From Candidatus Aenigmatarchaeota archaeon (lineage in GTDB: Archaea > Aenigmatarchaeota > Aenigmatarchaeia > Aenigmatarchaeales > Aenigmatarchaeaceae), in contig JAZDKZ010000006.1 of the NCBI GenBank assembly GCA_043802485.1, positions 199,497 through 263,496 on the forward strand: a stretch of DNA of 64,000 bases, read 5' to 3'. Positions within the stretch are counted from its first letter, which is position 1. Each line of letters starts with the position of its first letter. Below the pieces are notes generated by a model. It saw only the letters and a program-made list of their open reading frames with translations, was not told the DNA's origin and searched no databases. Below, in pieces: positions 1-23,204 of the stretch. Position numbers and translations under genes: made by a program.

Positions 1-930
1 GGCATATCCAACCCAGTGGCTTACACCGCAGTCAACTATTCTTTGTTAATTATTCTCGGGATAGCTTTAGCGATAGCGTCATACGCCTTCCTGGACAGCT
101 ATCAGAAGATAAGGATAAGAAAGGACATAGAGAAGATAGAGGACGAGTTCTCAACAGCGCTTTTCCAACTAGGCAATTCGATATCAGGAGGTCTGCCGCT
201 GGAGCTGGCAATTGAAAAGGCCAGAGCCAATCTGAAAGAGATGAGGATATCGGAATTCTTCGACATAATATCGCTTAACATGAAAAGGTTCGGCTACACC
301 TTCGAGCAGGCCCTGTTCGACAAAGACGTGGGAGCCCTGTGGTTCTACCCCTCTAATCTCATACAGTCGATAATGCAGACGTTGATGCAGTCTGCCAAGA
401 AGAGCGTCACATCAGCCGCCAATTCCATGATAATCATATCCAGGTACCTGAAGGATGTCCATGAGGTCAAGGAGGAGATAAACGAGATACTGGGAGAAAC
501 TATAACAAGCATGAAATTCTTGGCAATGTTCCTGGCACCAATGGTTTCTGGTGTAACTCTTACACTGGCAGTTGTCATACTGAGAATACTTGAGAACCTG
601 GGAGGAACAATGGGCAACATCATGGCCTCTTCAGGCGGCATGAACAGCTATCAAACCGTTATGCTGGTGCCGTGGGCCATGGGAACCGGCGGAGAGCCCC
701 TGATAACTCCGGCAATATTCCAACTGGTGGTTGGCTTGTACATGATAGAGACAGCTGTTCTTCTGTCAGTGTTCCTCAATGGTGTTAAATACGGAAACGA
801 TCCAGTAGGAATGAGGGAAGGCATGTGGATGATAGTTCTCTTCGGAATACTCATCTACATATTGAGCTGGTTCATAACCTATGCAATGTTCGGCACATCC
901 ATAGAAACTCTGCTCGCTGTTCCGACATAA
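1..930 (+). CDS. Type IV pilus/archaellum-type assembly platform membrane protein (T2SS-F, TadC/FlaJ/PilC-like); 5' end lies outside the window
   Basis: The frame is open from nt 1, and the tool start at 16 is a GTG inside that open frame. A helical soluble segment (GGLPLELAIEKA...FGYTFEQALFD) is followed by several hydrophobic helices, as in T2SS-F platform proteins. It heads a cluster of pilin-like genes. Confidence 0.6.
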   Translation, partial: GISNPVAYTAVNYSLLIILGIALAIASYAFLDSYQKIRIRKDIEKIEDEFSTALFQLGNSISGGLPLELAIEKARANLKEMRISEFFDIISLNMKRFGYTFEQALFDKDVGALWFYPSNLIQSIMQTLMQSAKKSVTSAANSMIIISRYLKDVHEVKEEINEILGETITSMKFLAMFLAPMVSGVTLTLAVVILRILENLGGTMGNIMASSGGMNSYQTVMLVPWAMGTGGEPLITPAIFQLVVGLYMIETAVLLSVFLNGVKYGNDPVGMREGMWMIVLFGILIYILSWFITYAMFGTSIETLLAVPT

Positions 931-2631: not shown

Positions 2632-4497
2632 ATGAGAGGACTGTCCGCCCTTATTATAGCGATTATCTTTGCGGTTGTCTGGGTATTGCTAGTGATACTT
2701 TTTTTAAGACATGTCAATACTTTCGTAGAACCTGCCGGAAATTCTGAGAAAGGGTCAGAACAGAGGATAATACCAAATGACGGCTTTGACTACACCACTT
2801 ACCTTCTAAGTGAGGATCCTGTCGACTTGGCTACTTACGACGAATGCGACAAGCTCAAGAACGCAATAAAGTACGCGATTATCAACGAAAGGCCTTATCT
2901 TGTGGACACAATAGCATACGGCAGCAACCTTGTAGACAAGGTGGACTTTCCGTTCATAGGTAACTGCCTAGACGAGGACCTTGTATTCGAGATAGGTGAG
3001 GGTCTTGAACAAGTCGTGTGCAGATTCAGGACTGCCACGCAGAATGAAAAAGTCGGCTTAGAATTCGGGGGCATATCGGACGCATCGATGCTCTATTTTG
3101 ACAACTGTGTATACGCTTTCGACAACCACAACATACTTCCCTCATTATCGTCAAAGAATATAATGGGACCTGCTGTCGAGGAAACGAGCACAGACGCCAG
3201 CACGGTAAAGGTCATCTACTCGCCTGACCACATGTACATAGAAAACGGGGACTATTCGCATTACCCTTTTGTACCAACCAACTCACCTGTTGCAGGCCTT
3301 AATCGCTTGTATTTGATGAACAGTAGCGCCTTTGACATGGCTTACAACGGCGGTGGCTGGCTGAACATCTACGTGGGCAAGGCCGAGTCAGTCAACGGCG
3401 AATGTAGGTATAATGTGTATTTCTGCCCAAGGCCTGCCATAGCTAGTGACATGCAGAGCAGGACGCTTGACGTCTTCAACATATTCAGAAAGCTTGAGAT
3501 ATATCCTGTATACTTCCCCTATTACATAAGAGACCTTTCGGACGATGCCCTTGACATGTCCGGTTATTCTAATGAAGTTTACCATTGGAACTACTATGAT
3601 GTCGATTTAGGCGATGAGGGGTATGATGTCGAGACTATAGTAAACGCCATAAAGGCTGGCCTTTATTTCAACGTTCACTCCAAGGGTTACGAGTTCGCCC
3701 ATCCACACTGGGACATAGAAAAGGATGACAGTATATCAATTTACGAGCTGGCTAACAAGATAGCATTGCACATAGGCGTTAAAACAGGTTCAGGGGAAAT
3801 ATGCGCCCAAAAGGTGTATTTAGGCCTTCCGTACGGAGACAAGTACTGCACCACAACATCACTACTGCTTTTTGTGGACAGGGACGACCCTATCAAATCT
3901 TACAGGTTTACCAGCAATCCCCTTGGTGATAGCTTCACCCGTTTCGAGGGGAGCTTCGGTACAATACCATCTTCTGTTTACACCAGAAACATCAACACGA
4001 ACAGTTATTTGAACGCTGTATTCGGGGCAGACGATGGTATGATTGCAATAGATATAGGAGTCAAAGAGGGCATGGGGGAGATATGCGTTGACGACCAGTG
4101 CACAGACACCTCGATGATAGTAAAGATAAACCCTGGTACAGAAGTAACCATAAGTGCAAAAGAAGACCCTGGTTACGAGTTCGCCTTTTTCGAAGGCTCT
4201 AGCACAACTTATGATTTAGATACGTTTGATAGGACGATAAACTACGGTGATTTTTTGAACGTCATATTTGTTCCTAATGACGGCGAGATAGGCGATTGCT
4301 GGTACCAGTCCTACAACGAAATGCTGAACGATGCTTCAGAATGGAAACGGACACGCTCGATAAGGTTCAACTGTGGCGGTGACAATGTGTGTAGTGGCAC
4401 CCTGAGGATAAAAATGGCAATAAGGAAGGACACGGATGTTGATGGCGAGGACAAGAAAACATACGTCTCAAGTGTGGTTTCATTCTGCGATACTTAA
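2632..4497 (+). CDS. Secreted Cys-containing protein, family member 2, with two tandem beta-repeat (InlB-B-repeat-like) modules
   Basis: The N-terminus is MRGLSALIIAIIFAVVWVLLVILFL. Family motifs are CRYNVYFCPRPAIA, GDCW and GTLRIKMAIRK...VVSFCDT. An internal repeat reads IGVKTGSGEIC... / IGVKEGMGEIC...EDPGYEFAFFEG. Confidence 0.7.
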   Translation: MRGLSALIIAIIFAVVWVLLVILFLRHVNTFVEPAGNSEKGSEQRIIPNDGFDYTTYLLSEDPVDLATYDECDKLKNAIKYAIINERPYLVDTIAYGSNLVDKVDFPFIGNCLDEDLVFEIGEGLEQVVCRFRTATQNEKVGLEFGGISDASMLYFDNCVYAFDNHNILPSLSSKNIMGPAVEETSTDASTVKVIYSPDHMYIENGDYSHYPFVPTNSPVAGLNRLYLMNSSAFDMAYNGGGWLNIYVGKAESVNGECRYNVYFCPRPAIASDMQSRTLDVFNIFRKLEIYPVYFPYYIRDLSDDALDMSGYSNEVYHWNYYDVDLGDEGYDVETIVNAIKAGLYFNVHSKGYEFAHPHWDIEKDDSISIYELANKIALHIGVKTGSGEICAQKVYLGLPYGDKYCTTTSLLLFVDRDDPIKSYRFTSNPLGDSFTRFEGSFGTIPSSVYTRNINTNSYLNAVFGADDGMIAIDIGVKEGMGEICVDDQCTDTSMIVKINPGTEVTISAKEDPGYEFAFFEGSSTTYDLDTFDRTINYGDFLNVIFVPNDGEIGDCWYQSYNEMLNDASEWKRTRSIRFNCGGDNVCSGTLRIKMAIRKDTDVDGEDKKTYVSSVVSFCDT

Positions 4498-11938: not shown

Positions 11939-12211
11939 TCATGACAAGCACCTGTTATCTACGCAGTCAAAGCTGCCGCAATCGGTATCATCGATACAGC
12001 CGCAGAAGTTCGAGCCTCCGTTTATGCTGAGGCATATGCCGTTGCCCCGTTCGCGGCATTCTGACGTTGTTTTGCACTCGTTGGAAGTCTGTGAAGAAGT
12101 GGCACCAATAGGTGCTGCGCGCGCCTGGTTAGAAAATAGGAAGCCAGAAAAAACAGACATCACTAACAAGAGGACAAACACCATCATCATCAAAATAAAG
12201 ACCAAGTCCAT
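11939..12211 (-). CDS. Small secreted Cys-rich (8 Cys) protein; the only minus-strand gene in the island
   Basis: A signal-like N-terminus (MDLVFILMMMVFVLLLVMSVFSGFLF) is followed by CKTTSECRERGNGICLSINGGSNFCGCIDDTDCGSFDCVDNRC. The overlapping plus-strand ORFs are low-complexity. Confidence 0.55.
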   Translation of the reverse strand: MDLVFILMMMVFVLLLVMSVFSGFLFSNQARAAPIGATSSQTSNECKTTSECRERGNGICLSINGGSNFCGCIDDTDCGSFDCVDNRCLS

Positions 12212-12274: not shown

Positions 12275-12592
12275 ATGGGTAAGGGTGCCAGTTTTGTAAT
12301 GAATATAATTATAATCGTGTTTATTGTGGTAATCATGGCACTTATCTACTTTCAGATTGTCAACCCGACGGTAAAGGCCCAAGAACAAGTGGTTTCAGAT
12401 ATGGATATAATGTGGTACTGCCCTGATTGGCAAAAGAACGGATGCTCGATTGTTAGCGCCGAAAATATCAAGATAAAAGATACTGACGACGGCTATCTCT
12501 CTGATCTCTGCGCAGAAAGATACGGTACTGCTTGGAGCAAAGATGTCTATGAGCAGTGCAAGGAGTTATGCAAAGGATGCACGAGTGAATAG
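12275..12592 (+). CDS. Pilin-like protein (small-pilin paralog A)
   Basis: MGKGASFVMNIIIIVFIVVIMALIYF has a KG followed by a hydrophobic helix. It has 4+ Cys and the tail DLCAERYG...CKELCKGC, shared with the ORFs at 18570, 18945 and 19890. Confidence 0.6.
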   Translation: MGKGASFVMNIIIIVFIVVIMALIYFQIVNPTVKAQEQVVSDMDIMWYCPDWQKNGCSIVSAENIKIKDTDDGYLSDLCAERYGTAWSKDVYEQCKELCKGCTSE

Positions 12593-12595
12593 GTT

Positions 12596-12910
12596 ATGAT
12601 TATGAAAGGTGTTTCGTTAGCAGTAACAGCTGTCATACTGATGGTATTAGCAGCAGTAGTCCTTTTAGCATACATATACTTTATATCAGGCAGCAAAGGT
12701 CAGATAGACATACTGCAATACCAGTCAGCACTGAGAAGCTGTTGCGGTGACAGGACAAAATACAAATGCGATGGAATTACCATAAACTGCAAGGTTCCGT
12801 GGAGCGATGAGCCTATGTCTATTGATAAACTTGCTGAGAAAGCCGGTATAACATGGGATTCTACTGAATTTGACAGTTTTTGTTTCTGTCCAGAACCAGC
12901 AGGTGCTTGA
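12596..12910 (+). CDS. Pilin-like protein (small-pilin paralog B)
   Basis: (MI)MKGVSLAVTAVILMVLAAVVLLAYIY. An alternative ATG at 12602 gives an MKG start. The C-terminal half is Cys-rich, and the gene sits 3 nt after the upstream stop. Confidence 0.6.
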   Translation: MIMKGVSLAVTAVILMVLAAVVLLAYIYFISGSKGQIDILQYQSALRSCCGDRTKYKCDGITINCKVPWSDEPMSIDKLAEKAGITWDSTEFDSFCFCPEPAGA

Positions 12911-15900
12911 ATGGTAGCAATTACACAGGCAATAGAAACTGCAATAGCAGTTATAATATTCGTATTCCTAGTAATGCTTTTCTTCATGATATTCGGCAAT
13001 TCTGAATGCGAAGGCATGTCTGACTCGACGGCAGCGCAGCTAGCTGACGCCGTAAACAAGGTCGTGCTGGAAGACGGCATCCAACCGTGGACAGGAGGAG
13101 GCGTTCCAGGCGACGATGACACTGACTACTACGAACCTGTTGCCATAAGGCTCTGCGAGGTAAACTCTATGAACGGGTTTGCAGCTCAGTTCATGGCGCA
13201 GCAGCCTACATACATGATTGTTTTTGAATCCTTTCCCGAAGGCACTGTTTCTTGGCACGAGACTCAACCCTGGAGCGGGGGCGCTGTCCAAGCAGTATTA
13301 GAGTATTCACAGATGAGATGGGGGCTTAAAGCATTGACTTTTGGCGGAAAGCTTACTGCGATATTGGTGAGAAGGGGTGGAGGGTTTGTCAAAAACGTTA
13401 TAACAAAATACTCGTGGGCGCTTTTAGGCAGAAAACTCACCAGAGCTTTGGACTATGTTAGGAACAGTCGGATTGTCAAATGGTTCATGGTCAAGTTGGG
13501 CAGATCAAACACCCAGACAACTATCGCCGATACAGCAGACGACTTCCTCAACCCGAGATATATGACTAACAATAATTTGGGGTTGACCAGCGAATACAAC
13601 AAATTCTTGTTGGTGTCTAAAAAAGGCAGAGACCATGCTCTGGTAGCTATGGGAGCAATAGAAGGAGTATTCGACTACAGTGCAAATGCTTTTGTCCCAA
13701 TACCAAACAAAGCAGGAAAGTATATTGTCAATGAAGGCTTCAGAGACTTTATGATTAATTTTGTAGACAATATGGGTGAAGACGGCAAGGTTCTGGGTGA
13801 TATGCTCCAGATACCATCAAGATTCCCAAAACTCGCTGAAAGACTAAGCAGTATCAAAGATCGTTTATGGCGCCCGCTCAAAGGAGCTGTAACAGACTGG
13901 TGGCACGATAGCAGCCTGAAAAGATACGTCTATGACGCACCGAGAGAACTCTACAGAAAGATAAGGGGAAAAACAGACGATGCAAAGAATGCGTTCAACA
14001 AAATATTCAACTATGGGAACGGCATGACCGATCCTAGGATAATATCCAAACAGGCAGGAGCTGCCAAAGAATACGCGATGAGGAACAGCGACAAGCTCAT
14101 GAAGGAGGTAGTCGACAATTTTGACGACCCGAAGATAGCAGACTTTGTAAATGATCTGCAAAAGGTTACAGGAAAGGTCTACGAGAGCGGTGCCGACATA
14201 ACTCAGACTGACATAATTTCGTACATAAACAAGTACAACAGATGGGAAAACATGCAGGACTTTGTAGAGTTCCTACCAAGGGAGCAGCTGGACCTGAGGA
14301 GTAATGCATACAAATGGATGGGGGGGGATATAAAGGACAGCGCTGAAAAATTGAAGAAAGGAGATATTTCATACGAGACTTTCATTGAAAGGTTTAAACC
14401 TTGGGACGATTTGGAGGGAAGACAAAGTGATTTGGTAAATGATTTCTCTAAAGGCTATACAAGGAATGGCCAAAAATTCACTATTGAAGTCGAACACGCT
14501 AAAGACGCATACGAGTACGCCAGATTAAGGGCAGCAGCAGAAGGGATATTTGACGCTGCAAATAGTGGTAGAACGAACTGGCTCGCAAACCAGGCTGACG
14601 AAATAGAAACCGCTCTAATAAGAGAGCAGTACAGACTGGACAAGTATGTTACAGACGATGTGAAAATAATAGACTATATAATGAAAAACTCCATATCAGA
14701 TTCTTCCCTGGATAAATTCCCCTTAGTGACAAATACCCTCAGTTATGGATGGCAGAGATTAAAGAGGGGAGTGTATCTGGACCTTAACAGGATAGGCGGG
14801 ATAGAGGGAGCCCCGTCATTAGCACCTTATAATTTAGTCCCAGGAGCCTACACGGCTGAGAGGGTGGTTGAAAAGGAGACTGAGATAAAAGAAGGCGGGT
14901 GCGCCAGCAATTCGATATGCAGGATAGTGAAAGGCCGTGCAGAGGGCCCGACAGAAACTGCCAGAGCATACTTACTTGATAGGAAGGTTCCAGAAGGTAT
15001 AGAAGTAAAGCTTTGGAGGGAAAACCCAGACATTGGTGTTGTCGGATCAGACAGAACTGTCGCAGGCGTTAACACGATATTAATGAGCATATTTCCGCCT
15101 CAGGAGAATCCTAATTTCTATGTGGTAAGCCCGTGCTTTGCAATTGCCAAGGTCTGGAAAGAAGGAAGCGAAGGGCCTGTTTACGTAGAGATAGACAAGA
15201 GCAAGAAATGTGATGTCAGCGGTTGCAATCAGCTAACCACCGACAACGTCGACACACCAAACTATTGCTATGCTAGCGAGGAGTTTGTATGGGGGGAGAG
15301 TGACGAACCCAACCAGTGGAGCTATGTGGCCGCTTATTTTGGATGCGTATTCGCTTGCGAAGGCGGTACAATAGGTCTAGGAACGCCCGAGTGCATAAAG
15401 ACTTGTAAATATAGCACTATAGGAGCATTGCTATTGCAAGCAACGGCTGCAACGCAGGAATATAGAAGCCCGAGCTGGGAAAGACAAGACACAGGCTGGG
15501 GCTATTGGAACTATCAAAAGGCAGAAGACGTATGCGACCTGATAGACATGGTATCCAGCATAGGCGGTGGAAAAAGTTTTACTAATGCTAAAGGCCTTGA
15601 CAAGCTAAAAGCAGCAAAGGGGCTGGGAGAAAAGTGGGATATTTTCAAACAACTGGGCAAGGGCGACGTGGCAAAATTCGTCGGAGGGCAGTTCTTCAAC
15701 CTTAACGACGTGTGCTACAGCCTGCTGCTTATGGGAGACACATCTTTGTCATGGCCTGTAAAGACACCGGCAGCCGAAGTTTGGAGAAAGGGAGCCATTC
15801 TAGGACAGGACTGCATGCAGCAGTCGGCAGGCAGTTGTGTATGGCTGAGAAAGTGCACCAACGCAGCAAATGATTGCCCAATAGGTTGGTATTGCGACAT

Positions 15901-15931
15901 GGATGCGAACATTTGCAGAAAGGGTGATTAG
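12911..15931 (+). CDS. 1006-aa membrane-anchored protein of unknown function with a six-Cys C-terminal module
   Basis: The ATG directly abuts the upstream TGA. N-terminus MVAITQAIETAIAVIIFVFLVMLFF, then a long charged helical middle. The C-terminus is C-x7-C-x5-C-x6-C-x5-C-x6-C (CMQQSAGSCVWLRKCTNAANDCPIGWYCDMDANIC). I recognised no family. Confidence 0.7.
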   Translation: MVAITQAIETAIAVIIFVFLVMLFFMIFGNSECEGMSDSTAAQLADAVNKVVLEDGIQPWTGGGVPGDDDTDYYEPVAIRLCEVNSMNGFAAQFMAQQPTYMIVFESFPEGTVSWHETQPWSGGAVQAVLEYSQMRWGLKALTFGGKLTAILVRRGGGFVKNVITKYSWALLGRKLTRALDYVRNSRIVKWFMVKLGRSNTQTTIADTADDFLNPRYMTNNNLGLTSEYNKFLLVSKKGRDHALVAMGAIEGVFDYSANAFVPIPNKAGKYIVNEGFRDFMINFVDNMGEDGKVLGDMLQIPSRFPKLAERLSSIKDRLWRPLKGAVTDWWHDSSLKRYVYDAPRELYRKIRGKTDDAKNAFNKIFNYGNGMTDPRIISKQAGAAKEYAMRNSDKLMKEVVDNFDDPKIADFVNDLQKVTGKVYESGADITQTDIISYINKYNRWENMQDFVEFLPREQLDLRSNAYKWMGGDIKDSAEKLKKGDISYETFIERFKPWDDLEGRQSDLVNDFSKGYTRNGQKFTIEVEHAKDAYEYARLRAAAEGIFDAANSGRTNWLANQADEIETALIREQYRLDKYVTDDVKIIDYIMKNSISDSSLDKFPLVTNTLSYGWQRLKRGVYLDLNRIGGIEGAPSLAPYNLVPGAYTAERVVEKETEIKEGGCASNSICRIVKGRAEGPTETARAYLLDRKVPEGIEVKLWRENPDIGVVGSDRTVAGVNTILMSIFPPQENPNFYVVSPCFAIAKVWKEGSEGPVYVEIDKSKKCDVSGCNQLTTDNVDTPNYCYASEEFVWGESDEPNQWSYVAAYFGCVFACEGGTIGLGTPECIKTCKYSTIGALLLQATAATQEYRSPSWERQDTGWGYWNYQKAEDVCDLIDMVSSIGGGKSFTNAKGLDKLKAAKGLGEKWDIFKQLGKGDVAKFVGGQFFNLNDVCYSLLLMGDTSLSWPVKTPAAEVWRKGAILGQDCMQQSAGSCVWLRKCTNAANDCPIGWYCDMDANICRKGD

Positions 15932-16651
15932 ATGAAGAGTATAACAGAGCATTTCTTGCTGTTCATAGTGGGCATATTCGTCATTGTTATAGTCATGACA
16001 ACAATATTCGGAAAAGGAATAGCCTACAATTATCTAAGCTACCTGTCGACCATCGAGCCGAGAGGCCTCCAAGAGAACATAAGAAACGTGCTGACTGTAG
16101 CATCCTATTCGCCAGGAGAGTTTGAGGCAAGGATTCCGATAAACGTCAAGCACAGCATAACCATAACAGACAACCCGAAGACCATTGTCATTCTACCCGA
16201 ATCGGAAAGCCAGCTGGCGCAGACAAATCCGCAGCCTTTCATGTCACAGTGCGACATGGTCAAGAGGTGCACAAAGGTCTGCAAGATGATAGGCGACAAA
16301 TGCGCTGGGCGTGAGGATTGCTGCGGCCTGCTCAGCTGCAATACAAGAGGCCGCTGCGAGAGCACCTTTGGCATGTGCGGCAACCAGATTCTTGAAGATG
16401 GAGAAGAGTGCGAGCCTGCAGACCCGGAAGGAGAACCACCCTTTGATGGTATTGATAATAATTGTGAAAGCCAGTGCAGCGAGGACTGTAGTTGTCCTGA
16501 TGAGTTAAAAACCACCCAGCCATGCACAAACAGTAACCAATGCTTCCATCAGATGGAATGCCTCACCTTCGTAAAGTTCTACGACGTGGGAGAGGTAATG
16601 ATTATAAGAAAGTATTTTGAGGGAGACCAATGCAAGATAACCATCGAATGA
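15932..16651 (+). CDS. Membrane-anchored protein with a knottin-spaced Cys module and a CGN...GEEC repeat
   Basis: The ATG abuts the upstream TAG. N-terminus MKSITEHFLLFIVGIFVIVIVMTTIF. CKMIGDKCAGREDCCGLLSCNTRGRC has C6C5CC4C5C spacing, and CGNQILEDGEECEPAD resembles the myxococcal Cys-rich repeat. Confidence 0.65.
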   Translation: MKSITEHFLLFIVGIFVIVIVMTTIFGKGIAYNYLSYLSTIEPRGLQENIRNVLTVASYSPGEFEARIPINVKHSITITDNPKTIVILPESESQLAQTNPQPFMSQCDMVKRCTKVCKMIGDKCAGREDCCGLLSCNTRGRCESTFGMCGNQILEDGEECEPADPEGEPPFDGIDNNCESQCSEDCSCPDELKTTQPCTNSNQCFHQMECLTFVKFYDVGEVMIIRKYFEGDQCKITIE

Positions 16652-17121
16652 AGGGGGCCTTCGCCCTTAGCGAGACTTTCATAAAAATACTGTCAACAGG
16701 AGTGTTGGCGATAATACTCCTGGCCATTTTTCTGTCGATAAACAATTATCACCTTATCTACGCGGAGAATGCAATCGACAGGGAGGCCCTTATTGTCGGC
16801 AACACTGTGCTGTCCAGCTGCATAGCGGAAGGCTACGACGAAGGAAAGCCTATAAAGGCCCTTTTGTCAGAGGAGAAGATAGTATACAAATATGATTCTG
16901 TAAGCGAATCAAACATAGACTGCTTGGAATATGAAAAGGGAATATACATAGAGATTTATGACGAGGATTCATTGTTGTACGGATTTGGAGACAGGCATGT
17001 GTGTAAAAGCCCGTCAAATACCATTTGTGAGGTGGACAGGGGCATGATGGTATTTCCCGCTGCGCTGAAAGGAGCAGCAATCGTGATACCTGTAACTGTG
17101 AACGTATATGTTGGTGATTAG
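16648..17121 (+). CDS. Pilin-like protein (minor-pilin candidate)
   Basis: The ATG at 16648 overlaps the upstream stop (ATGA). N-terminus MKGAFALSETFIKILSTGVLAIILLAIFL. Confidence 0.6.
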   Translation: MKGAFALSETFIKILSTGVLAIILLAIFLSINNYHLIYAENAIDREALIVGNTVLSSCIAEGYDEGKPIKALLSEEKIVYKYDSVSESNIDCLEYEKGIYIEIYDEDSLLYGFGDRHVCKSPSNTICEVDRGMMVFPAALKGAAIVIPVTVNVYVGD

Positions 17122-17682
17122 ATGAAAGGAATAGAGCTTTTGGCATCAATACTGGCGTTAATGATAATGATAGGTGTGGGTTCGCTTTTCGGAGGCATAA
17201 TAATATCAGTCATAAACCTCTCCGAACAGCCCAGTCTCGGTCCTATACACTATGAGATGTTCATGTTTCCCGCATACCCGCCGGTAAAGTACGAGACCAT
17301 GCTGCTCTCGTATCTGGAGACCACGGAGCCCTCTTCAGGCTTGCAGATAAAAAAGATACTGACCTACGCGGCCTATCAGAGGACCATTGACAGCATCTAC
17401 ATAGAAGGAGAGACCATAAGCAGAAGCGAGCTGGAGCAGGCGACCAGAGATGTTTTCGAGAAGTGGCTACCTGGAGGAGCGTACCTTATAGAGCTGAAGA
17501 TAGGAAAAGAGAACCATGTCATAGCGAAGAACTCTGACGTCCTGGGAAAGCTGTCAAAAGAAGTGTTGAGAATAAGGAAAATATCTGTGCCGCTGTTCAT
17601 TGATGAAGAGACTTACATTGCCAACTACCCCAAAAACAGCGAGCTGCCAATGAATATCATTCTTGATTTTTATGTCCAATAG
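17122..17682 (+). CDS. Pilin-like protein (minor-pilin candidate)
   Basis: The ATG abuts the upstream TAG. N-terminus MKGIELLASILALMIMIGVGSLF. Confidence 0.6.
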   Translation: MKGIELLASILALMIMIGVGSLFGGIIISVINLSEQPSLGPIHYEMFMFPAYPPVKYETMLLSYLETTEPSSGLQIKKILTYAAYQRTIDSIYIEGETISRSELEQATRDVFEKWLPGGAYLIELKIGKENHVIAKNSDVLGKLSKEVLRIRKISVPLFIDEETYIANYPKNSELPMNIILDFYVQ

Positions 17683-18520
17683 AAAAGGCATGACCATACC
17701 TGTGCTGGGAACCGTTTTGATAGTGATAGCTGTAGTCATCACTTCATTCGGAGGTGTCTTTAGCCAGCAGTTCGCGGTAGAGAAGCTACAGAGTGGAGGG
17801 CTGACAATGTCGTTGCAAAACCACGAAGAGTTCTGGATAAAGGCCTTTGATCAGAGCGTGGAAATAATAGCCAAGAGGTCTGCCTTCGAGTTAGCAAGAA
17901 CTGGAGGCTTCCAAAGCTCAGAACCTGCAACATGGTACAAAGACTATCCAACCATGGAAATACTCGAAAGCGAGCTGGAGAAGAAAATAAACAGGAATCT
18001 GCCGGTAGGCAATATAAACGCCAAGAGGAGCATAGAGTTCTACAACAGCATAATAGACGTCAGCGGCTATGACACGGACTGCCTTGTAAACTCAAAATCA
18101 GAATGCTTTATCGTTGACGGAGAAAAGTACTTTGCCATAAGTGACAAGTCAATAGAAGCAAAGATGTCACTTGACCCGCACACTTTCAGTTACAAGATAG
18201 GCTCCAACTACTTTAGGCTCATGAAAGCTGGAAGGATAATAATGGACGAGTACAACACCGAATTTGACAACGTGGCAGGCCTGCTGAACACGCTGAGAGC
18301 TGATTCAAGGTTTGACGGTCTACATCTGGAAACAGCCTTGGTGGACGGCCTGATAGAGTTCAGGATATCTGATAGGGAATGCGTAAGTAGCGGCAAGTAC
18401 TTTTGCCTTGCCCCGACAAAACATGACGAATATGGAGCAGTACTCGGAGGCACTAGAGTTCCTTATGACTTTCTGATACTCAAGTTCAGGGTGGACAAAG
18501 AAAACCTGTACCACGACTAG
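17672..18520 (+). CDS. Pilin-like protein (minor-pilin candidate)
   Basis: The ATG at 17672 overlaps the upstream gene by 11 nt. N-terminus MSNRKGMTIPVLGTVLIVIAVVITSF (RKG plus a hydrophobic helix). Confidence 0.6.
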   Translation: MSNRKGMTIPVLGTVLIVIAVVITSFGGVFSQQFAVEKLQSGGLTMSLQNHEEFWIKAFDQSVEIIAKRSAFELARTGGFQSSEPATWYKDYPTMEILESELEKKINRNLPVGNINAKRSIEFYNSIIDVSGYDTDCLVNSKSECFIVDGEKYFAISDKSIEAKMSLDPHTFSYKIGSNYFRLMKAGRIIMDEYNTEFDNVAGLLNTLRADSRFDGLHLETALVDGLIEFRISDRECVSSGKYFCLAPTKHDEYGAVLGGTRVPYDFLILKFRVDKENLYHD

Positions 18521-18569
18521 TCCTTCTAAATCTAAAAAGTTTATATGAGAGATACATCATAATTCTATC

Positions 18570-18893
18570 ATGGAACTCTCAATAAATGCTGTCATCATAA
18601 TTATAATAGCAATGATAGTTCTTTTGGCAATAGGTTCTTTGTTCACTGGAGTATGGAGCCCCCAGAAACGAGGGATCCAAGTCGAGATGGCAAAGAACAA
18701 CGCATGCCGCATGCTCTCATTATCCAACTGCGAAACAGAACTGGATAAGATAAAAATCAAGGACTTTGATGTGGACAATGATGGAGTTGTAGGAAATGAT
18801 GATGACGACACACTTAAACTGCTCTGCTCTAGTTATTACGGCATGGATGACGAGAACGATTGCAAAACGAAGATATGCGATTGTGAGGAATGA
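18570..18893 (+). CDS. Small pilin paralog C, lacking the KG leader
   Basis: MELSINAVIIIIIAMIVLLAIG. An in-frame TGA at 18546 prevents a longer leader. It has 4+ Cys, FDVDNDGVVGNDDDD and the tail LLCSSYYG...CKTKICDC. Confidence 0.65.
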   Translation: MELSINAVIIIIIAMIVLLAIGSLFTGVWSPQKRGIQVEMAKNNACRMLSLSNCETELDKIKIKDFDVDNDGVVGNDDDDTLKLLCSSYYGMDDENDCKTKICDCEE

Positions 18894-18944
18894 GCCAAAA
18901 GCTTATATATCCGGTTTATCAATAAAATTAAAAGGTGAAAAACA

Positions 18945-19367
18945 GTGAAAGGTATCGAATTACCAATAAACATTTTAGTGATAGTTGCAGTGGCTGTTAT
19001 CGTTTTACTAGGTCTGGTTGCTTTGTACTTTAGCGGCTTCATGGGCCCAGCAGGCGTCATGAATGCGCAGGCAACGAAACAGAAATATTGCGCATCCATA
19101 ATGAACAATCCAATGGGTTGCCAAGGCGGTGTGTATACAAGCAGTATACAGATAAACGATTTTGATGCAGACAAAGACGGGGTCTTAGGAACTTCGGACG
19201 GCGGCACAAGTTGGCATGAAACCGATGCTGTATGGGACAGCCAGTTACCGGTTGATGTTTGCACAGCAGACGACAACGTTCAAGACAACCTGGCATCATT
19301 GCTGGCTTGCTACTTTGGAGCAACATCCGAAAGAAACGCCCTGCAAATATGTGGCTGCACGATATAG
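18945..19367 (+). CDS. Small pilin paralog D
   Basis: The GTG start sits after AGGTGAAAAACA. N-terminus MKGIELPINILVIVAVAVIVLLGL, with FDADKDGVLG and the tail LLACYFG...QICGC. Confidence 0.7.
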   Translation: MKGIELPINILVIVAVAVIVLLGLVALYFSGFMGPAGVMNAQATKQKYCASIMNNPMGCQGGVYTSSIQINDFDADKDGVLGTSDGGTSWHETDAVWDSQLPVDVCTADDNVQDNLASLLACYFGATSERNALQICGCTI

Positions 19368-19507
19368 GAAAATAAGAGCCAAGACCTTTATGTCAGTTAA
19401 AACTGTGATAAAGTAAAGCCTTTTGAGTTTTTGACCCTTATTTTTATTCTTAATCACGTTCAACGGTTTACAACAAACCACTAATACAAAATCAAAGAGG
19501 TGAAAAA

Positions 19508-19804
19508 ATGGCAGAAAACACAAAAAAAGAAGCAGAGAGCAACGTGGTCTTTGTCGGCAAAAAGCCGGCAATGAGCTATGTTCTTGCATGCGTAACACAG
19601 TTCAACGAGGGAAATACTGAGATAATGCTGAGAGCAAGAGGAAGGGCAATATCTCACGCAGTGGACGTAGCAGAGATAGTGAAAAACAAGTTTGTGACAG
19701 ATACAGAGATCAAGAACGTCAAGATAGACACAGAGGAAGTCGAAACAGATAGCGGTGAGAAGCTGAACGTTTCCTCGATAGAGATTACGCTTGGCAAAAA
19801 GTGA
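19508..19804 (+). CDS. albA: Alba (Sso10b-type) DNA/RNA-binding protein
   Basis: The 98-aa sequence [21 protein letters not shown]...[24 protein letters not shown] is typical of Alba. There is a strong SD (GAGGTGAAAAAATG). Confidence 0.85.
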
Positions 19805-19889
19805 TTCAGTTTTCCAGGGGCTTTAGTTTTTTGCCCTTTGCAACCTTTCTTGGGTTATTTTTATATATGCGTTTCCTCAAATAGAAATT

Positions 19890-20246
19890 ATGAAGGGTAT
19901 TTCACTTCCGATAAATGTTCTGGTAATTGTCATTGTAGCAGTGATAGTTCTTTTGGGCGTGATGGCCCTGTTCATGGGAACTTGGTCTCCTTTCGGGACC
20001 TCAATGAGTGCGGAAGCTGCGAAATCAGCAGGATGCAGAAAAGTGATAAACAATTGTTATAAATCGGAGGAAGATCTTGATACTTATACCAAAACTATTT
20101 TGATATTCAATGGTCAAGATGGTCTGCCTAATTTTGACGTTGATGGTATTGATTATGTTGGTACTGGGGTGAATGGAGACAACATGTATAATTTATGTGT
20201 TAAATTTTATGGCGCAAAATGCAGAGATCTGTGCGGTTGCCAGTGA
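19890..20246 (+). CDS. Small pilin paralog E
   Basis: MKGISLPINVLVIVIVAVIVLLGV, nearly identical in N-terminus to the ORF at 18945. It has FDVDGIDYVGTG and the tail NLCVKFYGAKCRDLCGC. Confidence 0.7.
   Translation: MKGISLPINVLVIVIVAVIVLLGVMALFMGTWSPFGTSMSAEAAKSAGCRKVINNCYKSEEDLDTYTKTILIFNGQDGLPNFDVDGIDYVGTGVNGDNMYNLCVKFYGAKCRDLCGCQ

Positions 20247-21723: not shown

Positions 21724-23204
<1,481 letters not shown>

Follow-up and report, generated by a model that had tools for sequence, protein, structure and literature searches.

A putative pilin family of the Aenigmatarchaeota with a new head domain and members lacking a leader peptide

A window of 64,000 nucleotides (nt) from the 0.77-Mb genome of a Candidatus Aenigmatarchaeota archaeon, a member of the DPANN archaea, was analysed (G000:C6:199497-263496; GenBank assembly GCA_043802485.1, contig JAZDKZ010000006.1; plain positions below are those of the window). 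A preliminary description of this window had grouped five small open reading frames (ORFs), starting at 12275 (A), 12596 (B), 18570 (C), 18945 (D) and 19890 (E), as one family of pilins. All five ORFs are present at these positions, as is every peptide string quoted for them. Their sequences indicate that C, D and E belong to a large, lineage-specific and unannotated family of putative pilins whose head domain is new and some of whose members, C among them, naturally lack a leader. Together with a fourth copy on another contig (C7), they are likely to be alternative filament subunits, and thus major-pilin candidates, of an Aenigmatarchaeota type IV filament system.

Membership, conservation and context of the family

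A hidden Markov model (HMM) of the globular part, built from the proteins of relatives only, was run over the complete set of 6200 ORFs in this genome, where it matched C (8e-21), D (3e-17) and E (3e-13), together with a fourth, previously unnoticed paralog (G000:C7:15456-15881(-); 7e-18). The proposed family of five therefore shrinks within the window to three clear paralogs, C, D and E, whereas A is marginal, reaching no better than E=0.02 with this globular HMM, and B is unsupported. Profile-profile comparison (hhalign) with C/D/E gave the A group a probability of 59%, limited to the C-terminal LCxxYG...C...C module, and the B group one of 18%; B, which obtained no score with the globular HMM, was rejected as a family member. 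A and B are neighbours that stay together in relatives, where each has its own orthologs, and the acidic loop described below is present in none of these proteins. They are read here as separate minor-pilin-like proteins, and A may be a distant relative of the C/D/E head that lacks the loop. The stop codon of B overlaps the start of a gene for a 1006-amino acid (aa) protein (TGAATG).

The C/D/E family was found in 38 of 41 related genomes, usually in tandem arrays of two to eight genes, and is confined to Aenigmatarchaeota. A profile search, in which the 8000 candidates with the most shared words were scored, gave at least 306 family proteins, none of which has a Pfam domain on record. Few of these proteins carry a name in their source; nearly all that do are called "hypothetical protein", and three are labelled generically as membrane or pilus-assembly proteins. 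When 1.84 billion cluster representatives (50% identity) were searched exhaustively, 1107 clusters matched at E<=1e-3, with 462 at E<=1e-10.

The N-termini of D and E read MKG↓I(E/S)LPIN (the arrow marks the predicted cleavage site): a short basic leader ending in glycine, followed by a hydrophobic stretch. The leader is exactly M-K-G in 101 of 121 members and, in an alignment of 116 members, conservation is 90% or higher at Glu+2 and Pro+4, positions +1 to +5 reading xELPI. The five proteins had been presented as four-cysteine proteins, but each has six cysteines; the globular part of the family contains four invariant ones (46, 54, 103 and 105 in the numbering of C). The number of cysteines is even in 113 of the 116 members, C86 and C98 are lost jointly, and C88 is gained together with exactly one cysteine in the loop insertion. 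Cysteines that come and go in pairs point to disulfides and hence to a head outside the cell, which, judged from this covariation, would be held by three to four such bonds, with C86 predicted to pair with C98, and C46/C54 with C103/C105. Modular-pilin-like members also occur, P0038 (220 aa) and P0202 (646 aa) having long cysteine-rich C-terminal extensions. A further protein, P0004 (268 aa), comprises two pilin modules in a single reading frame.

In an AlphaFold2 model of C, for which the 116-sequence alignment was used (pLDDT 88), residues 5-28/30-51 are helical and residues 52-107 make up a compact head. Within the head, a single beta-bridge between residues 62 and 81 closes the acidic loop, and two helices follow (82-89 and 95-102). 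A model of the head only agrees with this arrangement (pLDDT 86, pTM 0.71). The head is predicted to be a compact, disulfide-knotted domain with a probable Ca2+ site and to have no relative among solved structures.

C, D and E are the last genes of a type IV filament operon, with Alba among them. Positions 1-20246 of the window form a single same-strand gene block, which opens with the 3' part of a gene for a T2SSF-type platform protein. The genes for a secretion ATPase and for this platform protein head the operon that holds C, D and E, and relatives keep the same order. KG↓hydrophobic N-termini are found on at least eight further proteins of the operon. An A24 prepilin peptidase gene is located elsewhere in the genome (G000:C3:5668-6489; PF01478, 46.7 bits, above the cut-off) and encodes a GGGD (GxGD) motif.

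In the mechanism proposed on this basis, a typical member would be synthesized with the three-residue leader M-K-G and inserted into the membrane via a hydrophobic helix of about 25 residues. The A24 peptidase of the genome would then cut after the glycine, and the ATPase/platform motor would polymerise the subunits via their N-terminal helix of about 50 residues. The exposed head would be a small three-helix domain with three to four disulfides and, most likely, a Ca2+ ion, bound by the Dx[DN]xDG loop and by an invariant Asp starting the next helix. We infer cleavage, filament assembly, Ca2+ binding and, for C, peptidase independence from what the sequences show directly, namely the family and its conservation, its operon context, and the loss of the leader with the selection that followed.

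Leaderless proteins and the loss of the leader

C begins M-E-L-S-I-N, where its paralogs have MKG↓[IVM]-E-L-P-I-N. The product of 18570 had been described as devoid of a cleavable leader, and this is borne out: an in-frame TGA (18546-18548) is found 24 nt upstream of the ATG at 18570, and the arrangement is kept in the ortholog. A longer leader translated from an upstream non-ATG start was considered and rejected: only seven codons are available, and their product (EIHHNSI, against ALYSNSN in the ortholog) is unconserved and has no K/R-G. The TATA boxes 30 nt before the starts of C and E (Table 1) suggest leaderless mRNAs beginning at the ATG, and the mRNA of C is accordingly predicted to start at this codon.

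The closest ortholog of C, P0002, is 57% identical, also starts MELSIN, and was found on five contigs from five assemblies. In these loci, the stop and the TATA box are placed as they are for C, and the genes follow one another in the same order: a 257-aa protein, C, D, Alba and E. The dN/dS ratio between the two leaderless genes is 0.25, like that of D, E and a neighbouring 285-aa gene, indicating that C has been under purifying selection since the leader was lost. A second case is provided by the sister species G001, in which the first pilin of the array begins ATG-GAG-CTT-CCC, where its close relative in G002 has ATG-AAA-GGT-ATG-GAG-CTT-CCC; this corresponds to a precise 9-nt deletion of M-K-G. 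A leader from an upstream start was rejected for the G001 copy too, given the stop codon immediately before its ATG.

A maximum-likelihood tree restricted to the mature parts of the proteins requires two independent losses of the leader, a single loss being allowed by 0% of the bootstrap trees. In this tree, P0001 and P0002 form a clade (100/99) on a long stem (0.89), sister to leader-bearing proteins, and P0019 is nested among other leader-bearing proteins. The conserved Pro+4 is replaced by Ser in the P0001/P0002 lineage, a change that would fit release from recognition by the peptidase. Two further proteins, P0159 and P0171, start M-P-E-L-P, with a TATA box 27-30 nt upstream and no in-frame K-G codons upstream; methionine aminopeptidase alone could expose their mature end. 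Two other apparently leaderless members were discarded as gene-calling artefacts: P0165 has TTG-AAA-GGC upstream, encoding MKG, and P0212 has ATG-AAA-GGA-CTT-GCA upstream. At the level of sequence, the absence of a leader in C, its conservation in the ortholog and its independent origin on at least two occasions are strongly supported.

C would be the same subunit made already mature, with the three leader codons gone and the initiator Met at +1, and it would need no prepilin peptidase. The more general proposal that type IV pilins can be made and assembled without a leader or a prepilin-peptidase step, the codons having been deleted at least two or three times and the result kept under purifying selection beside leader-bearing paralogs, is advanced tentatively, and falls a little short of an even chance. 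The alternative that C is a non-assembling pilin, either a decaying gene or a membrane-retained regulator or competitor, the missing leader being a defect, seems unlikely. It would account for the long stem of P0001/P0002 and the loss of Pro+4 in this lineage, and leaderless members are indeed rare, at 5 of about 250 examined. With the leader, C has also lost its Lys, so that its N-terminus carries no net positive charge, and K33/R34 come after the helix, so correct N-in insertion is not guaranteed; this weighs against assembly of C as a pilin. However, the dN/dS of 0.25 extends across a protein divergence of about 43% since the loss, with the six cysteines, the loop and the promoter all retained. 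The leader was lost independently at least twice, in addition to the M-P-ELP lineage, and C has its own consensus TATA box where a leaderless mRNA would be expected to have one. Selection, repeated loss and the TATA box together exclude decay, while remaining compatible with a non-assembling role.

To our knowledge, the synthesis of a precursor and its cleavage by a dedicated aspartic peptidase are treated as a defining step of every type IV filament, and a full-text literature search found no paper using the term "leaderless pilin" or variants of it. If leaderless pilins are indeed assembled, there would be at least some type IV filament systems in which subunits enter the membrane and polymerise with no need for a leader or its cleavage. 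The family would also offer a natural experiment, in the form of sister genes differing by a precise 9-nt deletion of the leader and an older leaderless lineage under purifying selection.

The acidic loop as a probable calcium site

The preliminary description had also pointed to an acidic loop resembling EF-hand or dockerin calcium sites in three of the proteins. This view is upheld by strong conservation of the columns and by repeated weak matches to EF-hands and dockerins, with the reservation that the loop of E is degenerate. Across the 116 homologs, the columns of the loop are F (94), D (113), A/V, [DN] (113), x, D (100), G (93), x and [IVLM]; conservation over so many homologs shows that the loop is not a chance feature. 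The consensus Dx[DN]xDG is present in 79-80 of the 116. With a hydrophobic residue at position 8 included, C (DVDNDGVV) and D (DADKDGVL) match the consensus and E (DVDGID) fails to do so; the ortholog of E retains FDADLDG. An invariant Asp (116/116) is found beyond the loop at a variable distance, 9-55 residues after the first Asp of the loop with peaks at 11-12, and opens the motif D-N-L-x-x-L-C. In the shortest members, such as P0071 (FDANQDGEVNSED), this Asp is at or beside loop position 12, as in EF-hands and dockerins.

Database comparisons point in the same direction at low strength. The Ca2+-loop proteins matched by profile in the Protein Data Bank (PDB) were S100-A16 (E 0.17), calmodulin, lanmodulin and an EF-hand kinase, none of them significantly (E 0.17-3.3). 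Among the Pfam models, Dockerin_1 and four of the EF-hand type each matched 3-6 of the 116 members at E of about 0.01, below their cut-offs. Ca2+ loops, in EF-hand proteins and dockerin, are thus the sole recurring weak matches of the family. An EF-hand-like site is also known from the pilus protein PilY1.

The loop probably binds Ca2+. That it is instead a purely structural or adhesive acidic turn, or a site for another ligand, with no calcium involved, is a doubtful alternative, although several points speak for it and, by the same token, against a calcium site. Only 18 of the 116 members combine a complete loop of 12 residues with an acidic position 12, the EF-hand and dockerin matches are all below threshold, and the protein E of this genome persists despite two lost loop positions. 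The AlphaFold2 model of C has no entering helix before the loop, which is therefore not part of a helix-loop-helix. Against a calcium-free turn, the combination of D-x-[DN]-x-D-G-x-[IVLM] with an invariant Asp is the pattern that DxDxDG calcium sites require, and nothing but Ca2+ loops recurs among the weak matches.

Pilin identity, neighbouring genes and known systems

The identification of these proteins as pilins is supported indirectly, by the KG↓hydrophobic N-terminus of class III type, the ATPase/T2SSF operon, the A24 peptidase in the genome and the combination of a helix with a compact head. Of the pilin "lollipop" to which the preliminary description referred, the model of C reproduces the outline, a long helix with a head, but not the canonical beta-sheet. 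Several observations weigh against the identification. The head is all-helical, without the classical sheet; Foldseek searches of the PDB returned 0 matches for the full model and for the head-only model of C; and Pfam and NCBIfam scans of the five proteins and 116 homologs gave nothing above threshold, with no match to a pilin family such as Pilin_N, Class_IIIsignal or N_methyl. In addition, the globular HMM matched the last 70 residues of a membrane protein with a DUF2330 domain (G000:C4:71381-73024; 6e-11). The head, thus, also ends a polytopic protein, suggesting that it is a portable extracellular module not restricted to pilins. As there is no matching pilin model, beta-sheet or Foldseek neighbour, it is the operon context, together with the N-terminus and its long helix, that justifies the label "pilin". 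A beta-sheet head is not universal among pilins, and is lacking in ComGC and Flp pilins. Besides the DUF2330 domain (1e-10), this 535-aa protein has several membrane helices, and the copy of the head at its C-terminus reads GCMQYLRNNC...IDANQNGRMDSGDTLQALAEIYYGC...CGCNV.

C, D and E could instead be helix-anchored surface proteins, with a module stabilised by Ca2+ and disulfides for envelope organisation or host contact, rather than filament subunits. Their pilin-like N-terminus would then do no more than anchor the protein or mark it for processing, as in archaeal substrate-binding proteins with a class III signal. The DUF2330 protein with its C-terminal extracellular head and the absence of matches to pilin models or folds would suit such an anchor, and a protein without a leader is no harder to reconcile with a plain membrane anchor than with a pilin. 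This explanation is nevertheless quite improbable, in view of the tight and widespread linkage of the family to the type IV filament operon, its tandem arrays, the nearly invariant xELPI beside the KG site, a predicted 50-residue helix far exceeding what a membrane anchor needs, and the modular members with grafted C-terminal domains. If C, D, E and the C7 copy are indeed filament subunits, the family gives a name and a profile to the probable major surface-filament subunits of Aenigmatarchaeota.

The features of the locus are listed in Table 1. The position of Alba between D and E, noted in the preliminary description, is confirmed. In 16 of 19 loci of relatives, belonging to several genera, Alba is located within the pilin array or next to it (tblastn; loci L002-L020), an unusually stable linkage. 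On L035, a metagenome contig of a relative, two LAGLIDADG endonuclease genes (1258-2031 and 3137-3586) flank Alba beside the pilin array. A 90-aa cysteine-rich protein with a pilin-like N-terminus and a weak Pilin_N match (E 0.009) is encoded at 11939-12211(-); relatives likewise have it next to A and B, in some cases on the same strand, with the motif ...CGCIDDxDCG.... The 1006-aa protein (12911-15931) starts M-VAITQAIETAIAVIIFVFLV, with a hydrophobic helix at once and no K-G site, and may represent another leaderless pilin-like N-terminus, carried by a very large protein. An archaeal 16S rRNA gene is found at 21724-23204(-). On C7, the end of the fourth paralog overlaps by 3 nt the start of a giant cysteine-rich ORF (>5153 aa, MISRKSFLIVLILF...; region C7:1-15881), which runs off the end of the contig; this overlap suggests that the pilin gene is translationally coupled to a huge surface protein.

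Table 1. Features of the putative filament locus (window positions in nt, except for the ATPase gene)
Feature	Position	Strand	Remarks
Secretion ATPase, 743 aa	G000:C6:196119-198350		Walker A GTRGAGKTS; immediately before the platform gene, just upstream of the window
T2SSF/FlaJ-like platform gene, 3' part	1..930	+	Full product 691 aa
Protein A, 105 aa	12275..12592	+	Minor-pilin-like, MGKG↓ASF...; six Cys in a similar framework; LCxxYG...C..C module
Protein B, 104 aa	12596..12910	+	Minor-pilin-like, MIMKG↓VSL...; shares only the pilin-type N-terminus with C/D/E
TATA-like box of C	18540..18547	+	TTTATATG after AAAAAG; exactly 30 nt before the ATG; same box and spacing in the ortholog (L022)
Putative pilin C, 107 aa, no leader	18570..18893	+	Cys 46, 54, 86, 98, 103, 105
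Acidic loop of C, residues 66-80	18765..18809	+	FDVDNDGVVGNDDDD; DxDxDG motif and family-invariant Asp80
Promoter-like elements of D	18902..18938	+	TATA CTTATATAT (18902-18910) and GGTGA ribosome-binding site (18934-18938) before the GTG start
Putative pilin D, 140 aa, leader MKG	18945..19367	+	GTG start; shifted Cys pattern (LLAC)
Loop of D	19161-19199	+	DADKDGVLGTSD; canonical 12 residues; long insertion in the loop
Alba chromatin/RNA-binding protein	19508..19804	+	PF01918, 5e-20; within the pilin array, not part of the pilus
TATA box of E	19860-19867	+	Same spacing to the start as for C
Putative pilin E, 118 aa, leader MKG	19890..20246	+	Degenerate loop
Loop of E	20133-20168	+	FDVDGIDYVGTG; degenerate

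DPANN archaea depend on contact with host cells, yet a survey published in 2026 found archaeal type IV filament systems to be scarce, and largely missing, in DPANN (PMC13705601). The system described here resembles the archaeal class III pilins (Sulfolobus Aap/Ups, Methanococcus EpdE/MMP1685, Haloferax PilA1-6) in its short basic leader ending in glycine, its hydrophobic helix, the operon with an ATPase and a platform protein, the A24 peptidase in the genome and the presence of several paralogous subunits. Unlike these pilins, the proteins of the C/D/E family match no pilin model and typically have a leader of only three residues, conserved Glu+2 and Pro+4, a predicted all-helical head with three to four predicted disulfides and a DxDxDG loop, and some of them are leaderless.

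The nearest analogy known to us is ComGC, the competence pilin of Gram-positive bacteria, which is small and has a helical head without the usual beta-sheet (PMC5572924; PMC7212644). C, D and E are likewise small putative pilins with a predicted helical head, whereas ComGC is bacterial and has neither a disulfide framework nor an acidic loop, and Foldseek retrieved no ComGC. The loop itself resembles those of EF-hands and dockerins (Pfam EF-hand_1/5/6/7 and Dockerin_1) in the pattern D-x-[DN]-x-D-G-x-[IVLM], in the acid at position 12 in the shortest members and in the helix after the loop; it differs from them in lacking an entering helix and in the 1-44 residues inserted before the distal Asp in most members. 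A calcium site in the head of a type IV filament subunit, which in C/D/E is only predicted, has a counterpart in the major endopilins of type II secretion (GspG/PulG), in which a conserved Ca2+ site stabilises the head (PMC13081927). GspG has an alpha-beta head with a site formed from a C-terminal loop, whereas in C/D/E the corresponding role would fall to the DxDxDG loop.

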